From the UHGV virus genome UHGV-0194282: DNA of 15,247 nt; one strand, 5' to 3'. The translations under genes were made by a program, and so were the position numbers. The stretch comes from a virus. Position 1 is the stretch's first letter. Each line of letters opens with the position of its first letter. Shown in pieces: positions 4,175 to 13,940 of the stretch. The notes under the pieces were generated by a model, which saw only the letters and a list, made by a program, of their open reading frames with translations, was not told the origin of the DNA and did no database searches.

Positions 4175-7100
4175 TCAGCTAATCGTGATGCCTGCAGTGG
4201 CTTTCTTCATCACAACAACCAGCAAATCGCTGATACTTGCTGTGGGATACCAGCCATTTACCCACCATGCTGATACAGAAAACTCCAGCGTCATGTGGCC
4301 GCGACCAGCAGGCATATCAATAACACCACTGTAAATCAGCGTATTATCCAGCGCGGTACGGTTATAAATTTCAGCACCGTTTTTCCGTACTATCAGGCGG
4401 CATGACGAATAAGTATCGCTGTTCTCCCGCTCATGTCTGGCACCGCTGAAAGCCACCGCCGGAATAACAATCTGCCGGTTAAACGGCTGATCGTCATAAA
4501 CCCTGACGGTAATGGTTCCTGATGGCCAACGCTCCGGTGCACGGGAGTCACGGGGGAAAGCCTTACCCACTGTTTTAACGAGATCGCCTTCAATCTGGTT
4601 TGCAGACAGTTTCCCTCTGATGACACAGTTCTCGTTAATGGTGACATTATTGAGCGTGCCGGTATTCGCCGTGATGGCTCCACTGATATCCGCATTGCGG
4701 GCTGTCAGCCTGCCATCCGGCGTCAGGGAAAACGTAGGAGGATTGCCGGATGACGTGATGCTCACCGCAAACAGTCGCTTCAGGAACACGTCGTTCATGA
4801 ACAGCTGATTCCCCTGCGCCACAAACAGCGGCGTGGTGTTGCCGTTCTCCGGGGTAATCATCGCGATACGGTCCGCCTGCAGCAGAATACTGCTCAGCGT
4901 CTGACCATCAACATCCTCAATCCCCGCGCCAATCCCGGCCACATAGGGAATACCGTTTTTTGTTTTCTGCACCTTCAGCATATACATGGCATTCAGCTCA
5001 TTGCGCGTGTCTGACTGAACCCGCTGGATTTGCTGTATGGTCACGGCCTGGTCACCCAGCTTTTTATCCGTGGTCGAGGTAATTTCACTCCCTTTTTTAT
5101 CCACGTACTGGCGGACCTGTGCTATCTGTCGGGCGTTTTCTGACTGCCCCTGGCTGACAGTCTGTGAGATTTCACTGCTCACCCGGTCCACTTTCTGGCT
5201 CACCTGCGCGATGGCCAGTGTCTGGTCCTCATTCTTTTTCGCAACCAGCTGCGTGAGGCTGTTTTCCGCCTTCCCGATTTTCCGGGTCACTTCTGCGATA
5301 TCCGTGTCCATCCGCTGACGGATGTCTTCTTCCAGTTGCGTGACCTCCGTACGCAGCGCTGAAGCATCAATGCGCTCTTTCAGTGCCTGGCCCAGAAGCG
5401 TCTCATCTATCAGCCCCCGGAAAATTTCCAGATACCCTTCACCATCATTGCTGGGCTGCCCGCTGGCTTCCACAAAAGCAGATTTTCCCACCAGGTTGAC
5501 GCTTCGCACGTAAAACCAGAAATCCGTCCCCGGCTTAATCCGGCTCCCATGGACAGTCCACTGACTGCCGGTCCCCAGATAACGGGCAGATTTTTCCACC
5601 TGTGCTGTGTTCGTGATGCGTTTTTCTGAGAACCAGAATTCAAACTGTACCGTCGGGTCATACACCGCAAGACGCGGGACCGCCGTTATCTGAAAATACC
5701 CCGGCGTCAGCTCAATGGTGGCGGGTTTTGCAGGTGCGTTAATCCTGAACGTGGTGGTGGCCGGTTCGCCCTGCTGGCCATAACTGTTAATCGCCCTGAC
5801 CGTCAGGGTGTATTCCCCCAGTGGCAGGCCGCTGAAACGGTGCTCCGTGTCTGCGGTGCTGGCGGTGCTCACCAGACGGCTGTCTTCTCCGCTTCCGCTG
5901 GTCAGACGCAGACTGAAGCGCACACCCTTCACCACCCGCGGCGTGTCCCATTTCGCCTGTGCCAGATACTGACCGTCAGCTGCACTCACCTCCACCGTCA
6001 GGTGCTGCACTGCCGGTGGGATAACGCTGTTCAGGGTGCCTGACTGCGGCTCAAAGCGGGCCCCGTTATCCACGATGGCTTCTTTTTCAGGTACGTGCTG
6101 CACCGCCGTGATGGCAAAGGTGCCGTCCGTGTTTTCCCGGATGGAGACACAGCGGAACAGGCGACGACGCAGTGACGGCAGGGAGAGTCCCCACACACCG
6201 TATGTCTCCACACCATCCGGCAGGGTGCTGACCTGTATCCGGTCAGGCGCGGGGTGTGCGGTGATGGCCACGCTCGCCGGCTTACCGCTGCCGTTAATCA
6301 GATTAACAGTGGCCGTGCCGGTCTCCGGCAGTGTCACCTCCCGGTCCAGCGTCAGGGTACGGCTGGCGGCATCGATGGACAGGACACGTCCGCCGGTCAT
6401 GGTCCCGGCATAGTCGTTATCACAGATTTCAATGATGTCACCGGGTGTGTGACGCAGCCCCTGTGACCCGAGCGTGAAATCCACCGTCTGCGTTTCCAGC
6501 AGTTCGGTCTTTATCACCCACAGCCCGGCACGGTGGGCCTGACCGCGGCTGGTACAGCCGAACGCGTCCATCTTCAGCAGGTTGCGTCCGTAGCGCAGTA
6601 TGGCTTCCGGGTCTTCCACCAGTTCCGTGGAGGTCTGCCAGCCGTTCTGCGGGTCGGTGTAATTCACCTCCACTGCCGTGTGCCGGTCCTTCAGGGCACT
6701 GAAGCTGTAGCGGAAACCCACGCCGTTATCATCCACCACCACATCGCTGTTGGTGTACGGCCACACCACATCCGACGGACGGTCCTGAACGAACGTCAGC
6801 GTCTGGCCGTTCCATACCGGCATACAGCGCATCGCAGAGCAGAAATCACTGAGAACGTCCCACGCCTTACGCTGTTGTGCCAGGTACGCATTAAAGGTCA
6901 TCCGCGGCTCGGTCCCCCCGAAACCATCCGGGGCCGTCTGGTCGCAGTACTGCCCGATGGCATACAGCGCCCACTTGTCCACATCCGCCGCCCCCAGACG
7001 TTTTCCCATGCCGTAGCGCGGGTGAGTCAGCATGTCCCACAGACACCAGGCCGGGTTGTTGCTGTATGCCGGTTTCAGGCTGCCGTCCCAGATACCACTG

Positions 7101-7867
7101 TACGTGCGTTTTTCCGGGTCATAGTTTGACGGCACCTGGATGATGCGACCGCGGATATGGTAGTTCACCGTCATCTGCTGGCCGCCGAACTGCTCCGCAT
7201 CCACCTGCAGCCCCACAATGGCCGTGTTCGGGTAGCACTGTTTCACATCGATGATTTCGGTGTATGACGACCACAGCGTCTTATTCTGCAGCTGGTCCGT
7301 GGTGCTGTCCGCCGTCTCCCTGACCATCCGGATGTTAAAGGGCCGGGGAGGCAGATTATCCAGAATCACCGAGGCCAGGAACTGCGAGGTGGTCTTGCCG
7401 TTAATGGTGACATCCTTTTCCGTCACCCAGCGGCCATTACGCTGTAACTGAATCAGAATCCGGACAGAGGAAGGATTACGGTCGCCCTTTGACGTGGTCT
7501 GCACCAGTGACTGCACCCCGAAGGTAACCCGCAGGCGGTCAATGTTCGCGGACGTAATGGTGCGCGTCACCGGTTTTGCCTTCGTCACTTCCACGCCCAG
7601 TCCGGTTTCAGCACCGGAGGACTCAAAGCCTTCCGGTGGTGTCTGCTCCTGCTCCCCGGCGCGCCAGACCGCCGTCACACCGTGTATCACGGGATTACCG
7701 TCCGTGTCCGTCAGCGGGGTTTTGTTCACCAGGATACTCTGCAGTCCCTTCACCGGACCTTCTATCGGTCCCTCACCAATCGCATCAATCACGCTCATCA
7801 TCTGCGTGGATTTGAGATTATCCTTCGCCTCACGAGGCGTGTGTGCCTTACCGCCACCTTTTCCCAT
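4175..7867 (-). CDS. J: Tail tip / host-specificity protein J (1230 aa)
   Basis: [22 protein letters not shown]... and long colinear similarity to lambda gpJ. Shine-Dalgarno GGGGAAGG upstream of the ATG. About 100 aa longer than lambda J, with an expanded coiled-coil segment and a divergent C-terminal ~150 aa. Confidence 0.95.
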
Positions 7868-7970
7868 ACAGCCTTCCCCTGAATAAATTAACCGCCACTT
7901 GCCATTCCGTACAGAAGTCGGATATCCTTCGCCCGAAAAGCATGAAACACATTTCTGCCATGCTAAAGAG

Positions 7971-8008
7971 AAACCCCGGTATCAGCAGATACCGGGGTTT
8001 TCTTTCAT
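7971..8008. terminator. Bidirectional terminator-like hairpin in the I-J spacer
   Basis: 13-bp stem aaaccccggtatc (7971-7983) / gataccggggttt (7988-8000) with a 4-nt loop; T-rich on the + side (ttttctttc) and U-rich on the minus side. Confidence 0.45.
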
Positions 8009-8072
8009 GCCCACCGATAATCCTGTTGGTTAAAACCGGTAATGGCATAAAAATTCTGAATATCTTCACATT

Positions 8073-8100
8073 TTCACAAACTGACTGTGGCGCGTATAAT
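8073..8100 (+). promoter_or_regulatory. Sigma70-type promoter candidate: TTCACA, 16-bp spacer, TATAAT
   Basis: -35 TTCACA at 8073-8078 and a perfect -10 TATAAT at 8095-8100, pointing rightward into a terminator about 70 bp downstream. Confidence 0.45.
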
Positions 8101-8106
8101 TTCTCT

Positions 8107-8203
8107 GCGTTAATTTTTTTGTCGTGATATAAGAATAATTCCTTACACTTAATCTTCGTAACTCTCCCGCAGTTCCTGTCCGCGATCACTGCGGGATTTT
8201 TTT
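8107..8203 (+). ncRNA. Candidate prophage small RNA (~97 nt) antisense-oriented to the tail operon, in the I-J spacer
   Basis: Bounded by the promoter at 8073-8100 and the intrinsic terminator at 8165-8203. No ATG or plausible ORF inside. AU-rich body with A-R-N-like stretches (AAGAAUAAU), then terminal hairpin and U-tract. Confidence 0.4.
8165..8203 (+). terminator. Intrinsic terminator, + strand only
   Basis: 9-bp stem tcccgcagt (8165-8173) / actgcggga (8188-8196) followed by TTTTTTT (8197-8203). The reverse complement has no U-tract after the stem. Confidence 0.55.
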
Positions 8204-8210
8204 ATTCTTT

Positions 8211-8891
8211 TTACCCCTGCCGCCCGATAACCACGACCTTTCCGCCCCCGCCTTCATCACGGGTGCTGATGTCCTGGGATATACGGCGGGAGCCAACCAG
8301 CATTTCCCCGTAAGGCACCGGCATCGGGTTCCCCTGGGCAATCATGTTATCCAGTGAGGAAAAGTACGTGTTCTGTCTGCCGTTATCCGTTGCGCGGTAA
8401 TCCGGTGTTTTTGCCTTCGGGGCCAGCATCTGGGCCACACCGCCCAGAATCATGCTGGCTCCAAGTGAAAACAGCATCGTGGTGGCAGAAAAACCACCGG
8501 CTGCCAGGGCTGAACCCCATAACGCCATTGATGCCCCGGCAGTGAAGAAAGAGCCCACGATGGCTGCCGCCCCCAGCACAATCTGCAGTCCACCCTTTCC
8601 GACCCCGGCCAGTCGCGGCACAATGTGGATGACCGTTCCCTCACCCAGCTGTTCGTGAAGACGGGCGTACACCGCCTCCGGTGCCGTGTCATCACCGGCA
8701 ATACGTATCTGGTACCAGCCTTCGTTCATCTGACGGCGAAAGCCCGGCATCTGCATCGACAGGGCGCGAATGGCTTCCGCTGCCGTGTTCACATACAGGC
8801 TGAGGCGGCGGCCAAATCGTTGTAAATCCCCGTGAAGGCAGATGCGTGCCAGTGGCGGTGACGCCAGACTGAATGCGTTCGTCGTTGCCAT
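8211..8891 (-). CDS. I: Tail assembly protein I (226 aa)
   Basis: MATTNAFSLASPPLARICLHGDLQRFGRR...QNTYFSSLDNMIAQGN matches lambda gpI; overlaps the upstream K fragment as in lambda. Confidence 0.93.
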   Translation of the reverse strand: MATTNAFSLASPPLARICLHGDLQRFGRRLSLYVNTAAEAIRALSMQMPGFRRQMNEGWYQIRIAGDDTAPEAVYARLHEQLGEGTVIHIVPRLAGVGKGGLQIVLGAAAIVGSFFTAGASMALWGSALAAGGFSATTMLFSLGASMILGGVAQMLAPKAKTPDYRATDNGRQNTYFSSLDNMIAQGNPMPVPYGEMLVGSRRISQDISTRDEGGGGKVVVIGRQG

Positions 8892-9057
8892 TTTTCGGAA
8901 TACCTCTCCCGTTTACTCAGTTGTTCAGGCAGATGGTGAAGCAGCTCACCGTTGCCGCAGTAAATGGCGGCATGGTTCGGTACCGAAGCACCAAAGCAGC
9001 ACAGCAGAATATCGCCCGCCTGTGCAGAGGACAGGGGCACCCGGTAAAAGCCGGTGC
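8789..9057 (-). pseudogene. K: Tail protein K, C-terminal ~88-codon fragment (5' part deleted)
   Basis: ...TGFYRVPLSSAQAGDILLCCFGASVPNHAAIYCGNGELLHHLPEQLSKRERYSEKWQRRTHSVWRHRHWHASAFTGIYNDLAAASACM matches only the C-terminal part of lambda gpK (~246 aa); the N-terminal part with the metalloprotease motif is absent. Confidence 0.85.
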
Positions 9058-9815: not shown

Positions 9816-11411
9816 TTATCGTCGCCGGTTAACAGCGGGTGGTTGCCCACGGTTGTCCGTCCCCACTTCACACAGATAAACGCCCCGCTGATTGCGGGTT
9901 TTCGGCATGGTGATCACCGGCTTGCCATAGACAGACGCGCCTTTTACCGGCAGCACACGGAAAACACCGTGTTTTTTTGACCTCTGGTAGACGATTTCAC
10001 CATCGATCCCCCCGGTGTCCCAGCAGACACGGGAAATGGTCATTTCGGTGCCATCCGCATGGCGGTATTTTTTGTTGATCGCCGCATCCACACGTAACAG
10101 CGTCTCTTCCTCATCAGGACGCCCCATAATGATGATTTTATCCACCAGAAAAGCTTCCTCTCCCGGTGCCCATCCCCAGACATACATCTCAAAACGGTTT
10201 CGCTGCGAGTCAATGCCCGCCGTCAGATAAACCACCCGGGCAGGCACCGCCGCCGTGTAACGCACAACCTTATCCATCAGCACCTGGTGATCGAGTTTTT
10301 CGCCCACGGCCTCTTCCCAGGTCTCGCCCAGCGTGGTGTTCACAAAGGTTTTCAGGCCGTTGGGATCTTTCAGTGCATCCAGCCAGTCATAGACTATCTG
10401 TACCCAGGTGGTGAACGGACTGTACGCTGTCCAGATATGGAACGTGATGGAGCGCGGCGGCGGAATTTCATTATCCGCGGCGCTGAAAAACGTCAGACCG
10501 TCACGGGTCCACATCCCCGTGTTTTCACAGATCCACCGCCCGTTGCTCTGGTCAAGCTCAGACTGATGGATCACGCAGCCATGATGTTCACAGAGGTAGA
10601 AAACGCTTTCGGGGCTGTCCTTCTCCCATTTAAGGCCAAAAGGCGTGGATTCATCGCCAAATTTCAGATACTGCTCCTCCCCACAGTGTGGGCAGGGCAC
10701 ATAAAAACGCATGAAATGCGCCGACTCGTTGGCCGCTTTTTCGATCTGGCAGGTGCCTTTGATTTTAGGCGTCGAGCCGCGAATGGATTTGGGCCATACA
10801 GAGCCCTCAATACGTTTATCCCCAAGCAGGGTTGGCGAACCCTCTTTTTCGACATCCGGTTCGAACGAGGAAAGTTCGTCATAGCAGACCACGTCCACGG
10901 ATTTTTCACGGTAGTTTTTGGCGGCAGCGCCGCCCAGGCACCAGAAACCCACACCCGATGAAAAGCGTTTCAGCGTGAGGGTATTGTCACGATGTTTACG
11001 CCCCAGCCATGGAAAAAGGTCTTTCAGACATGGCACATCCCGAATCGTCGCCTCCACGTGAGACTTCATAAAATCTTCAGCGGCAGAATCCGTGGGCTGA
11101 AAAAGCAGACTGTTTCGGGATTTATGCTCAATAAAATACCCGACCACCCCCAGCAACATCTTTGTATAGCCAACACGGGCAGATTTAATCAGATTAACAG
11201 TCCGGATCTGATCATTCCCCATGCTGTTCATGATGGCGATCTGGAACGGCAGCGTTTTCCATTCTCCCTCACCATATGAAGATTCTTTAGGCAGATAATA
11301 ATTTTGATCAGCCCATTCAACTGGCGTCACCGGCAATGCCCTTATCAGGGGCTGTAATGCTGTTGTGACAGCACTCATCATATTATTCAGTTGTTGCTCT
11401 GATATATTCAT
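9816..11411 (-). CDS. A: Terminase large subunit gpA, C-terminally truncated (531 aa; roughly 120 C-terminal residues replaced by 12 unrelated codons)
   Basis: From the internal ATG at 11411 (MNISEQQLNN...VEWADQNYYLPKES...) colinear with lambda gpA up to ...GVYLCEVGTD, then NRGQPPAVNRRR and stop, 15 bp before Z. The ORF-track start at 11468 is an upstream extension. Overlaps the Nu1-like gene by 29 nt, as in lambda. Confidence 0.85.
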   Translation of the reverse strand: MNISEQQLNNMMSAVTTALQPLIRALPVTPVEWADQNYYLPKESSYGEGEWKTLPFQIAIMNSMGNDQIRTVNLIKSARVGYTKMLLGVVGYFIEHKSRNSLLFQPTDSAAEDFMKSHVEATIRDVPCLKDLFPWLGRKHRDNTLTLKRFSSGVGFWCLGGAAAKNYREKSVDVVCYDELSSFEPDVEKEGSPTLLGDKRIEGSVWPKSIRGSTPKIKGTCQIEKAANESAHFMRFYVPCPHCGEEQYLKFGDESTPFGLKWEKDSPESVFYLCEHHGCVIHQSELDQSNGRWICENTGMWTRDGLTFFSAADNEIPPPRSITFHIWTAYSPFTTWVQIVYDWLDALKDPNGLKTFVNTTLGETWEEAVGEKLDHQVLMDKVVRYTAAVPARVVYLTAGIDSQRNRFEMYVWGWAPGEEAFLVDKIIIMGRPDEEETLLRVDAAINKKYRHADGTEMTISRVCWDTGGIDGEIVYQRSKKHGVFRVLPVKGASVYGKPVITMPKTRNQRGVYLCEVGTDNRGQPPAVNRRR

Positions 11412-11892
11412 CGAGTAAATCCGGTAATTTATCCCCCGCCCGCGCACACTGATTTGCCCCCTTCGCAATAAGGGTTTTCAGATGGTCAAGATGGCGCGGT
11501 GTTAAATCAGGAAACTGTCGCTGCATGGATAAAGGGATGGAATCAAGCGTACTGGATAACGCCATTGCCAGCTTGCTGAGGGCAAAAATACAGAACCCGG
11601 TATCAATAAGTTTTCCTTTTGACACCTCATTTTTTAACTGCTGTGTAACAGCCTGTTCTGCTGTCAGTTCCCATCTGGCAATAAGCAATTTCTCCTCATA
11701 GTCGTCTTCGCTATCGCCATCAGGCACATCGTTTTTACTTCTTCTCAGATACGATATGTAAAAATCGCGCCAGGCATCCAGATCCAGTTGCCCTCGCTTA
11801 TTCGATATCGGGGCACCCGGCAATTTCTGCAATCTGCGAAGCTGGCGATCGGTCAGACTTAAATGCCTGGCAACTTCAGTCTGCGTAGCCAC
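11383..11892 (-). CDS. nu1: Terminase small subunit (Nu1-like; non-lambda N-terminal DNA-binding domain), GTG start
   Basis: C-terminal half (...TGFCIFALSKLAMALSSTLDSIPLSMQRQFPDLTPRHLDHLK...LLDEYI) matches lambda Nu1; the N-terminal ~60 aa differ from lambda. GTG at 11892 preceded by GAGGTGAGGA. Sits next to cos. Confidence 0.85.
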   Translation of the reverse strand: MATQTEVARHLSLTDRQLRRLQKLPGAPISNKRGQLDLDAWRDFYISYLRRSKNDVPDGDSEDDYEEKLLIARWELTAEQAVTQQLKNEVSKGKLIDTGFCIFALSKLAMALSSTLDSIPLSMQRQFPDLTPRHLDHLKTLIAKGANQCARAGDKLPDLLDEYIRATTE

Positions 11893-12310: not shown

Positions 12311-13378
12311 ATGAGTCAACATCAATATTATCCACAGCTGAAATGGAAGCCTGCTGAATATGAATCTCTGATGCTTTTAGATCAAACTACGCTCTCTGGT
12401 TTTACTCCGATCATTACCATTCCAGACATAGACTGGGATTATGAAAACGAATGCTACAAGAAGAGTTTGAGTTCTTACTTATCTGACTTCGGTATTAACC
12501 TTGCGGCATCCTGGAAAGCCAATCGTCCTGTTTTGCTGGATGTTAAATATTTAGATAAACATGGTTCGAGCCGCCATCATCCTCTAGATATGTGTATCCA
12601 AGATGCTAGAGTAAATGGTAAGGAAATTATCCCTGTTGTTTCTCCCGCATATTCAACAAACTATATACATGCTGTTCAACGCAACTTAATCAATGGGCTC
12701 GCTATATCTATCACCCCCCAGACATGGCACCAATTCACAAGTCTGGTTAACCACTTAAATATTCATCCTAGTTTAATTGATGTAATCATTGATTTTGGAG
12801 ATATTCAAAACGCAACTGATAGTTTAAAACAACAAGCATTAAGCATGGTCAACACATTATCAGGCCAAGCTCCGTGGAGAAACTTGATTTTATCTTCAAC
12901 CGCATACCCAGCATCACAGGCAGGGATACCGCAACATCAAGTTCATCATATTCCGCGCCATGAATACGATCTTTGGATGTACGTAGTACAGAATTTTAGC
13001 AATGGAAGAACGCCAAGTTTTAGTGATTATCCCACCGCTAGCTCTACCATTACGAGCGTAGACCCACGCTTCATGTCTCAGTATGTCTCAGTGAGATATT
13101 CGAACGATACCTCATGGATCTTTGTAAAAGGTACCGCAGTTAAAGGAAATGGATGGGGCCAAACTAAAAACTTATGTACTACCCTTGTTAGTTCGCCAGA
13201 GTATCAAGTCTTTGGTTCCAAATTTAGTTGGGGGGATGATTACATTTACCAAAGATCATTAGGCGCTAACAAATCTGGCGGCTCTAAAGAATGGCGTAAA
13301 GTTGCACATACGCACCATATTACGTTAGTCGTGAGACAGCTTTATTGGTTGGCGCAGACTCAGCCTGCCAAGCCTTAA
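12311..13378 (+). CDS. Hypothetical protein, 355 aa, low-GC cargo gene; function unknown
   Basis: Long + strand ORF with a strong Shine-Dalgarno (AAGGAG, 6 nt before the ATG) and AT-rich upstream region with -10-like hexamers. GC content clearly below the flanking phage genes. No catalytic motif I can name. Confidence 0.8.
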   Translation: MSQHQYYPQLKWKPAEYESLMLLDQTTLSGFTPIITIPDIDWDYENECYKKSLSSYLSDFGINLAASWKANRPVLLDVKYLDKHGSSRHHPLDMCIQDARVNGKEIIPVVSPAYSTNYIHAVQRNLINGLAISITPQTWHQFTSLVNHLNIHPSLIDVIIDFGDIQNATDSLKQQALSMVNTLSGQAPWRNLILSSTAYPASQAGIPQHQVHHIPRHEYDLWMYVVQNFSNGRTPSFSDYPTASSTITSVDPRFMSQYVSVRYSNDTSWIFVKGTAVKGNGWGQTKNLCTTLVSSPEYQVFGSKFSWGDDYIYQRSLGANKSGGSKEWRKVAHTHHITLVVRQLYWLAQTQPAKP

Positions 13379-13940
13379 CTTTCCAGCCTACGCGTTTCTT
13401 TAAGGCTGTTCTGACTTCAAGCCTGAGATTCGCTATTGGAATATTTTCCGCAATAATATTCCATAACTCAAATCGGGGCTTGCTTTTGATTCCTTTGGAA
13501 TAGCCCCATCGTTCAAGTACGTCGATACATTCATCTTTCCAAAGCAATTGAGCGAGCATCAATGTGTCATGGTTTCGATTAAGCTTTTCTCCACGCATGT
13601 GCTTTATAAGAATGGCGCCTTTTGGCCCAACAGAAACCGTTTTAACGCCCCACCAACCTGGGATTAACTTTAATGCTCCCTCAAGATGTTTCTCAGCTAC
13701 GACAAGAGTAACCTTGTCCATTACAGAAGAATAATGCTTGATTTGAAGAGGCAAACGCTCCAAAGAGTCATATTCACTTTTGAGCTCGTACCCGTGTATA
13801 ACACCATTTATTACAGCAATGTCTGCTCTACTGGCGCCAAGGGATATGGAAAATTCATCGACCACAAGGCAGTCTGGATCTAAATGCGATTCTTTCAAAA
13901 GCTTATGATGCACCGCGAACCTAACATCTTGATCTTTCAT
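13320..13940 (-). CDS. Hypothetical protein, 206 aa, with a PD-(D/E)xK nuclease-like motif
   Basis: Minus-strand ORF with AAGGAG 5 nt before the ATG. The N-terminal region has acidic residue E29 (VVDEF), D40 (RADIAV) and E52-x-K54 (GYELK), the spacing typical of PD-(D/E)xK nucleases. Convergent with the 355-aa gene; 3' ends overlap by 59 bp. Low GC. Confidence 0.8.
   Translation of the reverse strand: MKDQDVRFAVHHKLLKESHLDPDCLVVDEFSISLGASRADIAVINGVIHGYELKSEYDSLERLPLQIKHYSSVMDKVTLVVAEKHLEGALKLIPGWWGVKTVSVGPKGAILIKHMRGEKLNRNHDTLMLAQLLWKDECIDVLERWGYSKGIKSKPRFELWNIIAENIPIANLRLEVRTALKKRVGWKVKAWQAESAPTNKAVSRLT

Follow-up and report, generated by a model that had tools for sequence, protein, structure and literature searches.

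The DNA analysed here is a stretch of 15,247 nucleotides from the virus genome UHGV-0194282 (the window, at its full length). In it the tail assembly gene I (8211-8792 in RefSeq; a strong match to tail-assembly PHROG families) and the tail tip gene J (4175-7867), both on the minus strand, are separated by a non-coding spacer of 343 bp (7868-8210), with J on the low-coordinate side. Located on the plus strand of this spacer, and therefore antisense to the tail operon, is a predicted small RNA (sRNA) gene of about 97 nt (8107-8203), supported by alignments and folds. It belongs to the known sRNA family PasB/EcOnc22 and is no new kind of element; we refer to the form found here as allele W. New are the recognition of W as a diverged, common allele that has been unsurveyed so far, the link between PasB and EcOnc22, a census of the alleles, and a form that is linked to sodC. 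Three open reading frames that overlap the spacer (94, 113 and 44 amino acids) had no PHROG match, and insertions and deletions among the alleles disrupt every reading frame. The I-J spacer is present in 1662 of 5426 complete Escherichia coli genomes and also in Shiga toxin (Stx)-converting and other lambdoid phages, and no RefSeq annotation of an sRNA was found in any copy of the family.

The promoter TTCACA-16-TATAAT (8073-8100, plus strand) is the sole site on both strands of the whole 15.2-kb window that matches the sigma-70 consensus at 11 of 12 positions. Dinucleotide shuffles of the window contained on average 0.145 such sites, which corresponds to about 0.003 per 343-bp stretch. The -10 hexamer TATAAT (8095-8100) is preceded by a 16-bp spacer, and the -35 hexamer (8073-8078) is the second copy of a tandem TTCACA-TT-TTCACA (8065-8078, plus strand) that is identical at the PasB locus of E. 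coli E2348/69. This repeat has a period of 8 nt and may be the binding site of a regulator; W and PasB keep it, the Sakai allele does not. From the usual distance of 7 nt to the -10 hexamer, transcription is predicted to start at G8107. The stem of an intrinsic terminator (8165-8203, plus strand) begins 65 bases 3' of the -10 hexamer: TCCCGCAGT (8165-8173) forms 9 bp with ACTGCGGGA (8188-8196) and is followed by T7 (8197-8203), as seen both in the sequence and in the fold. Because no T-run follows the hairpin on the reverse strand, the terminator would be active on the plus strand only. The U-tract is followed 8 nt further on by the stop codon of I. No ATG occurs in 8107-8203, and its GTG and TTG codons reach stops within two to three codons. 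The original prediction, made from the sequence alone, had described the spacer as non-coding and had placed in it a near-consensus promoter, a strand-specific terminator of a 9-bp stem plus T7, and a transcript without start codon; all of this was borne out.

Promoter, transcribed body and terminator together form a conserved module (8047-8205, plus strand) that is common to lambdoid and Stx phages. Matches in Stx1a and Stx2c phages span 8047-8202 only, the alignment of the window with the E2348/69 spacer likewise starts near 8047, and to the left of this position the DNA varies among spacer types.

PasB is one of the 'Pas' sRNAs that were found by RIL-seq (ligation of interacting RNAs, then sequencing) with Hfq in enteropathogenic E. 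coli (EPEC) O127:H6 E2348/69 (Pearl Mizrahi et al. 2021, PMC8550237). It is an 83-nt RNA of prophage PP6 (NC_011601.1, minus strand, 1466343 to 1466261; northern probe AATCCCGCAGTGATCGCGGAGCT; PMC8550237 Table S6). A northern band was seen, the log2 fold changes in the hfq mutant were -6.8 and -2.4, and the RNA was more abundant in the 'non-activating' growth condition; its 37 RIL-seq interactions contained PasB nearly always as RNA2, the second RNA of the chimera (PMC8550237). In the E2348/69 record the tail assembly gene I and gpJ flank these coordinates and are both read from the opposite strand, which puts PasB in the same spacer and on the same strand as W. A promoter and terminator scan of E2348/69 returned the identical 11/12 promoter and the identical terminator, the surrounding 36-nt promoter block having 2 mismatched positions. 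W and PasB can be aligned end to end with 72% identity over the 83-nt PasB span (89 columns). Their 3' 25 nt, comprising the terminator and U7, are identical and take in the site of the PasB northern probe; the probe's reverse complement maps to the terminator and agrees with the window in all of its 3' 20 nt. Also present in W are the conserved blocks AAnAAnAAnUCC, AUCUUC and UCU, and the two RNAs have AA-N repeats and UCCUU in common. When the identical 3' end is left aside, the body of W is only about 61% identical to that of PasB and differs by several insertions and deletions, which makes W a distinct allele; that it is PasB-2, the C27A variant, was rejected on sequence comparison.

A second set of relatives comes from enterohaemorrhagic E. 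coli (EHEC). EcOnc22, EcOnc23 and EcOnc24 of the Sakai prophages Sp15, Sp14 and Sp11 were recorded as peaks of Hfq cross-linking and analysis of cDNA (CRAC) by Tree et al. 2014 (PMC4104026 Table S2), who list for them a northern band of about 85 nt and the entry 'Destabilised' for the hfq mutant. We shifted the published coordinates by +127 nt for the assembly difference, an offset that was checked on HnrS/EcOnc11, which could be placed exactly by sequence. In the current Sakai record all three peaks then lie in 240-bp I-J spacers, antisense to the tail genes, and the EcOnc22 peak is inside an element homologous to PasB and to the window. The Sakai copies of the family are at L133:2330-2426 (Sp15), in L134 (Sp14) and in L135 (Sp11). 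Location in the I-J spacer, antisense strand and a 3' end next to the I stop codon are thus features that the window, E2348/69 and Sakai Sp15, Sp14 and Sp11 have in common, as is the terminator hairpin with a U-tract of at least six residues that characterizes the family and ends the RNA predicted in the window. EcOnc22-24 resemble W in position, strand, homologous body and terminator but carry a third body allele. The Sakai allele has another, poorer -35 region, which the promoter scan did not pick up, yet an RNA of about 85 nt has been reported from this allele. On sequence grounds, PasB (EPEC, 2021) and EcOnc22-24 (EHEC, 2014) appear to be the same family, which is therefore experimentally supported in two pathotypes. 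We found no published statement that equates EcOnc22 with PasB: Pearl Mizrahi et al. listed no EHEC homologue of PasB, though they did so for PasA and PasD (PMC8550237), a 2021 review listed EcOnc22-24 as Stx1-phage sRNAs with unknown targets, and a 2026 census of Pas sRNAs makes no mention of EcOnc (bioRxiv 10.64898/2026.05.13.724894). The answer to whether the RNA is one of those already described, which the original prediction had left open, is that it is a member of a described family.

Other prophage-encoded sRNAs could be set aside. HnrS (EcOnc10-12), an hha-repressing sRNA of prophages (Poudyal et al. 2026, PMC13502914), is short like W, ends in an intrinsic terminator, lies among late genes of lambdoid prophages and is Hfq-associated, and the short string UAAUCUUC is common to both. 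However, HnrS is encoded downstream of the lysis gene Rz, its sequence is unrelated and without match in the window, and identity of W with HnrS was rejected. HnrS pairs with the mazF 3' end and with the ribosome-binding site of hha. The idea that W targets hha through UAAUCUUC in the same way was dropped, as only 4 bp with hha's ribosome-binding site were found by inspection; an 8-nt match farther upstream is at chance level, and folding of the full-length duplex was uninformative. AgvB (RF02702) and AsxR (RF02703), both anti-sRNAs, Esr41 (RF02676) and STnc100 (RF02076) are, like W, prophage-encoded sRNAs, theirs being Hfq-associated and from pathogenic E. coli, but none of their covariance models matched at gathering score. 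A search of 8100-8205 against Rfam had been proposed along with the original prediction. Our scan with Rfam 15, at gathering score and also at E values up to 10, returned no family for the window at gathering score and no meaningful match to 8100-8203 at E up to 10, and the PasB, EcOnc22 and sodC-type loci matched no Rfam family at either setting; the kinship that emerged instead is that with the published sRNA PasB.

Comparison of the alleles points to the parts of the RNA that may matter for its function. The consensus structure across alleles consists of the terminator hairpin only, which is invariant. The hairpin with its tail of U6-8 is invariant or nearly so across alleles, and so are the 5' GCGUUA and a U-tract in the W and PasB alleles and in the two minor forms, S and X, described below. 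Directly 5' of UCCUU lies a candidate site for the distal face of Hfq (8131-8139, plus strand), three A-R-N triplets reading AAG-AAU-AAU in W. The same nine-base A-rich tract is AAA-AAC-AAC in PasB and AAA-AAU-AAC in EcOnc22, so that all three variable columns fall on the third (N) position of a triplet. With three allele states to compare, preservation of an A-R-N motif for the distal face would be expected to leave such a pattern. The features of an Hfq-binding module, namely a 3' hairpin with poly(U) and an ARN or U-A-rich element, are present in W as U7, AAG-AAU-AAU and a U-rich 5' segment. Immediately downstream is a candidate seed region (8140-8157, plus strand) that is unpaired or weakly paired in both the minimum free energy (MFE) and the centroid folds. 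It contains UCCUU (8140-8144), conserved in all alleles but EcOnc22-24, which have UCCAU, and AUCUUC (8152-8157), located a few bases 5' of the terminator and invariant in all alleles but the short S type. In the MFE fold of W the RNA is unpaired from 8149 to the terminator, and in the centroid fold an 83-nt form is wholly unpaired before the terminator. Zhu et al. 2026 proposed that the seed of PasB lies just 5' of the terminator (bioRxiv 10.64898/2026.05.13.724894), and UCCUU and AUCUUC may serve this purpose. Between and around these motifs several positions differ between W and PasB, and for this reason it is plausible, judging by the alignment, that the target sets of the two RNAs overlap but are not identical. 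Within the window itself, a search for targets of W found complementarities of 9 nt only, which is chance level.

The difference between W and PasB is confined to a short segment. Identity of the window to the E2348/69 prophage is 95-100% in I and the promoter and drops to 64-82% in 8087-8206; the divergence is a sharp island of about 100 bp centred on the transcribed body. The longest word common to W and PasB is 25 nt. With the 83-nt PasB sequence as query, megablast at word size 28 gave no match in the window, and blastn at word size 11 recovered the 25-nt terminator only, at 30% query coverage. For bacteria the 2026 census required more than 75% coverage at word size 28, for phages more than 50% at word size 11 (Zhu, Shabalina and Storz 2026, bioRxiv 10.64898/2026.05.13.724894). 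Because the published query fails at these settings in our local test, allele W would have been missed by that census, to which the EcOnc22 type was probably also invisible. The report by the same authors that PasB varies by only a few nucleotides (bioRxiv 10.64898/2026.05.13.724894) fits with the census having missed W. A literature search with strings from the W allele found no papers.

W proved to be common. Among 122 IMG/VR contigs carrying the promoter, 46 have allele W, about 40 a PasB-2-like allele (C27A), about 21 the PasB allele, 13 a short form, S, and 2 a hybrid form, X; on these contigs the alleles are mosaic with three types of left flank and two types of right flank. In the 5426 complete E. 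coli genomes, 800 have the W type (637 records at 99% identity or more), 956 the PasB type and 542 the EcOnc22 type. The latter is represented by 1246 copies, usually several per genome in Shiga toxin-producing E. coli (STEC), with a median of 2 copies. A band of W-type hits at 90-95% identity comprises 141 records, two of which were inspected. W is also present in the type strain of Escherichia albertii, the sole true match in a scan of species-representative genomes (two others were due to chance), and in the plaque-forming phage PhiR5_1. Carriers of W include the strains ATCC 25922, S88 and E. albertii NBRC 107761. In a phage collection the family occurred in 66 of 50,697 records, confined to Escherichia lambdoid and Stx phages. 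Based on the counts for W, PasB and EcOnc22, the family is about two to three times commoner than had been reported; both extraintestinal strains and E. albertii commonly carry it.

Taken together, these data make it likely that 8107-8203 on the plus strand is an Hfq-dependent sRNA gene of the PasB/EcOnc22 family; its own sigma-70 promoter would drive transcription in the lysogen, and the RNA would act in trans through base pairing. The original prediction of a prophage-encoded, Hfq-binding, trans-acting sRNA is supported by homology to PasB and EcOnc22-24, which were shown to be Hfq-dependent RNAs of about 83-85 nt (PMC8550237; PMC4104026). We propose that the promoter at 8073-8100 fires antisense to the tail operon of the prophage and that transcription would end at the intrinsic terminator 8 nt before the I stop codon. 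The product would be an RNA of about 85-97 nt, whose synthesis in the lysogen would not depend on late transcription of the phage and which is composed of an unstructured, AU-rich part of about 45 nt with UCCUU and AUCUUC, an (ARN)3 tract and a 3' hairpin with U7. Most likely this RNA would pair in trans, assisted by Hfq, with mRNAs of the host and of the prophage, and the altered body of W may give it a partly different set of targets. Judged by its relatives, W would function like any other prophage sRNA of this validated class.

Several points weigh against this interpretation. Expression, Hfq binding and targets of W are deduced from its homologues, and the low identity of the bodies means that PasB targets are not transferable to W. 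The seeds and targets of the family are candidates only, and the PasB study reported no common target motif (PMC8550237). No covariation is to be seen, because the terminator stem is invariant and the rest of the RNA unstructured. The published 5' end of PasB aligns to about 8121, not to 8107. A start of W at the equivalent position would give 83 nt, and since PasB measures 83 nt and EcOnc22 about 85 nt, the W RNA may be anything between 83 and 97 nt long; the transcript of about 97 nt that had been predicted thus stands as a unit but is perhaps closer to 83-85 nt in length. Finally, the prophage is defective, and the W copy could therefore be passively retained.

Between the sRNA promoter and J lies a strong hairpin (stem 7971-8000 with T-rich tail, in all 7971-8006; -32 kcal/mol, z = -6.6) with T-rich runs on both sides. 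In the window it would stop tail-sense transcription on the minus strand before J as well as plus-strand transcription coming from the J side. In each of three spacers compared (the 197-nt form of the window, the 95-nt form of E2348/69, and Sakai Sp15) a terminator hairpin in tail direction is found between sRNA promoter and J. That of the window is unrelated in sequence to the hairpin common to E2348/69 (L002:5431-5454) and Sakai Sp15 (L133:2242-2265), and it is the only one of the three forms with a T-run on the plus strand. The bidirectional insulator originally predicted here is thus partly supported: the hairpin with its T-runs is real, but bidirectionality is particular to the window form; the recurring feature would be a stop, before J, for tail-sense transcription that is not antiterminated. 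About 45 nt upstream of the hairpin is a promoter-like TTGCCA-18-TATCCT (7899-7928, plus strand) with 9 of 12 matches, a level expected by chance; it could give rise to a further short RNA, antisense to the J 5' untranslated region.

This arrangement raises the question of whether the RNA is chiefly a cis-acting antisense RNA that affects processing or decay of the late I-J transcript of its own prophage or of a superinfecting phage with the same allele, in addition to or instead of a role in trans. By geometry, the RNA could pair without mismatch over about 97 nt of the intergenic I-J tail transcript, and all promoter-bearing copies examined have the gene convergent with the tail genes and wholly inside the spacer. 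The recurrence of the adjacent tail-sense terminator in unrelated sequence forms is in line with such a role, and allele-specific recognition under frequency-dependent selection could yield an island of divergence confined to the body. We nevertheless consider a mainly cis-acting RNA unlikely. In the window the duplex would be more than 200 nt away from the ribosome-binding site of J and hence would not directly block J translation. Any effect on tail gene expression is purely putative, the tail operon of the window is broken by a deletion, and the many trans partners of PasB in RIL-seq are typical of a trans-acting sRNA.

The same deletion bears on whether the gene has any function in this genome. 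At 9048-9056 a truncated K gene (NlpC/P60) is fused to a truncated U gene; relative to ATCC 25922, about 5.9 kb of tail genes, from part of K through part of U, are gone. The large terminase subunit is truncated and head genes are gone (9048-9056 and 9816-11468). The prophage of the window is defective, and the sRNA gene is a passenger that has been retained in it. It might be a functionless one, kept only since the defective prophage has not yet decayed; intact prophages have copies with 100% identity to its sRNA region, which therefore has had no time to diverge. That the gene lacks function is nonetheless quite improbable in view of its intact promoter, terminator and motifs and of the frequency of allele W in hundreds of genomes and in E. 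albertii. Moreover, PasB is often kept where neighbouring phage genes have decayed (Zhu et al., bioRxiv 10.64898/2026.05.13.724894). As for the remaining content of the window, the lambdoid tail genes are on the minus strand, J being followed downstream in the operon, at lower coordinates, by lom and the side tail fibre genes. Between the small terminase subunit gene and an Rz-like lysis gene sits a convergent, overlapping gene pair, 12311-13378 (plus strand) and 13320-13940 (minus strand), annotated in RefSeq as 'beta family protein' and 'sce7726 family protein', respectively. The first protein is matched by PADLOC PD-Lambda-2_C (E = 4e-32) and the 'beta' model, the second by the PADLOC 'cll' model (E = 4e-31), and the pair (12311-13940) looks like an anti-phage defence moron.

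A further relative has a different organization. In E. coli 14EC047 (L132:891-1601) the I-J spacer harbours, on the sRNA strand, a moron encoding the Cu-Zn superoxide dismutase SodC. The sodC terminator is followed by about 60 nt without recognisable promoter and then by a body that is 94% identical to W and has its own terminator; homology to the window begins exactly at 8102, right after the -10 hexamer. This copy may be a version of the W sRNA of the 3' untranslated region (3'UTR) type. In E. coli O111:H2 12A (L137:780-900), IS679, an insertion sequence of the IS66 family, is inserted immediately upstream of a W-like body of the sodC type. That the bodies occur behind different upstream sequences identifies the transcribed unit as a conserved module. 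The Sakai RNAs EcOnc05, EcOnc08 and EcOnc21, considered as further sodC-linked copies, were rejected as they are unrelated and lie in a tRNA region. The sodC-linked form invites the view that the spacer is what remains of a protein-coding moron such as sodC, or an untranslated region of one, with an incidental promoter-terminator unit, an option that had been raised with the original prediction with regard to related prophages. It describes relatives such as 14EC047 but is very hard to reconcile with the window: no sodC-related sequence was found in 7869-8101, the unit has its own 11/12 promoter in common with the experimentally expressed PasB and is not a 3'UTR-derived sRNA of sodC, the spacer open reading frames are without homologues, and the sodC-linked form is better understood as this very sRNA unit in a position 3' of a moron. 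A chance origin of the unit is excluded by its homology to experimentally detected RNAs.

Our study shows that at least three major body alleles, PasB, EcOnc22 and W, each found in 10-18% of complete E. coli genomes, occupy one genomic slot. All three have the same terminator and the conserved candidate motifs for Hfq binding and seed, and the promoter is common to most. It is tempting, albeit rather doubtful, to regard the I-J sRNA locus as a modular cassette whose bodies are exchanged and whose alleles are maintained by selection, either because they control regulons of their own or because they act as allele-specific antisense RNAs against the late transcript of superinfecting phages with the same allele. 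If the latter applied, rare alleles would be favoured; if the locus were such a cassette, a body would be usable also 3' of the sodC moron without a promoter of its own. The localised divergence of the body, together with the promoter-less, sodC-linked copy, makes this family a tractable natural experiment on how seed and mode of expression change in horizontally acquired sRNAs.

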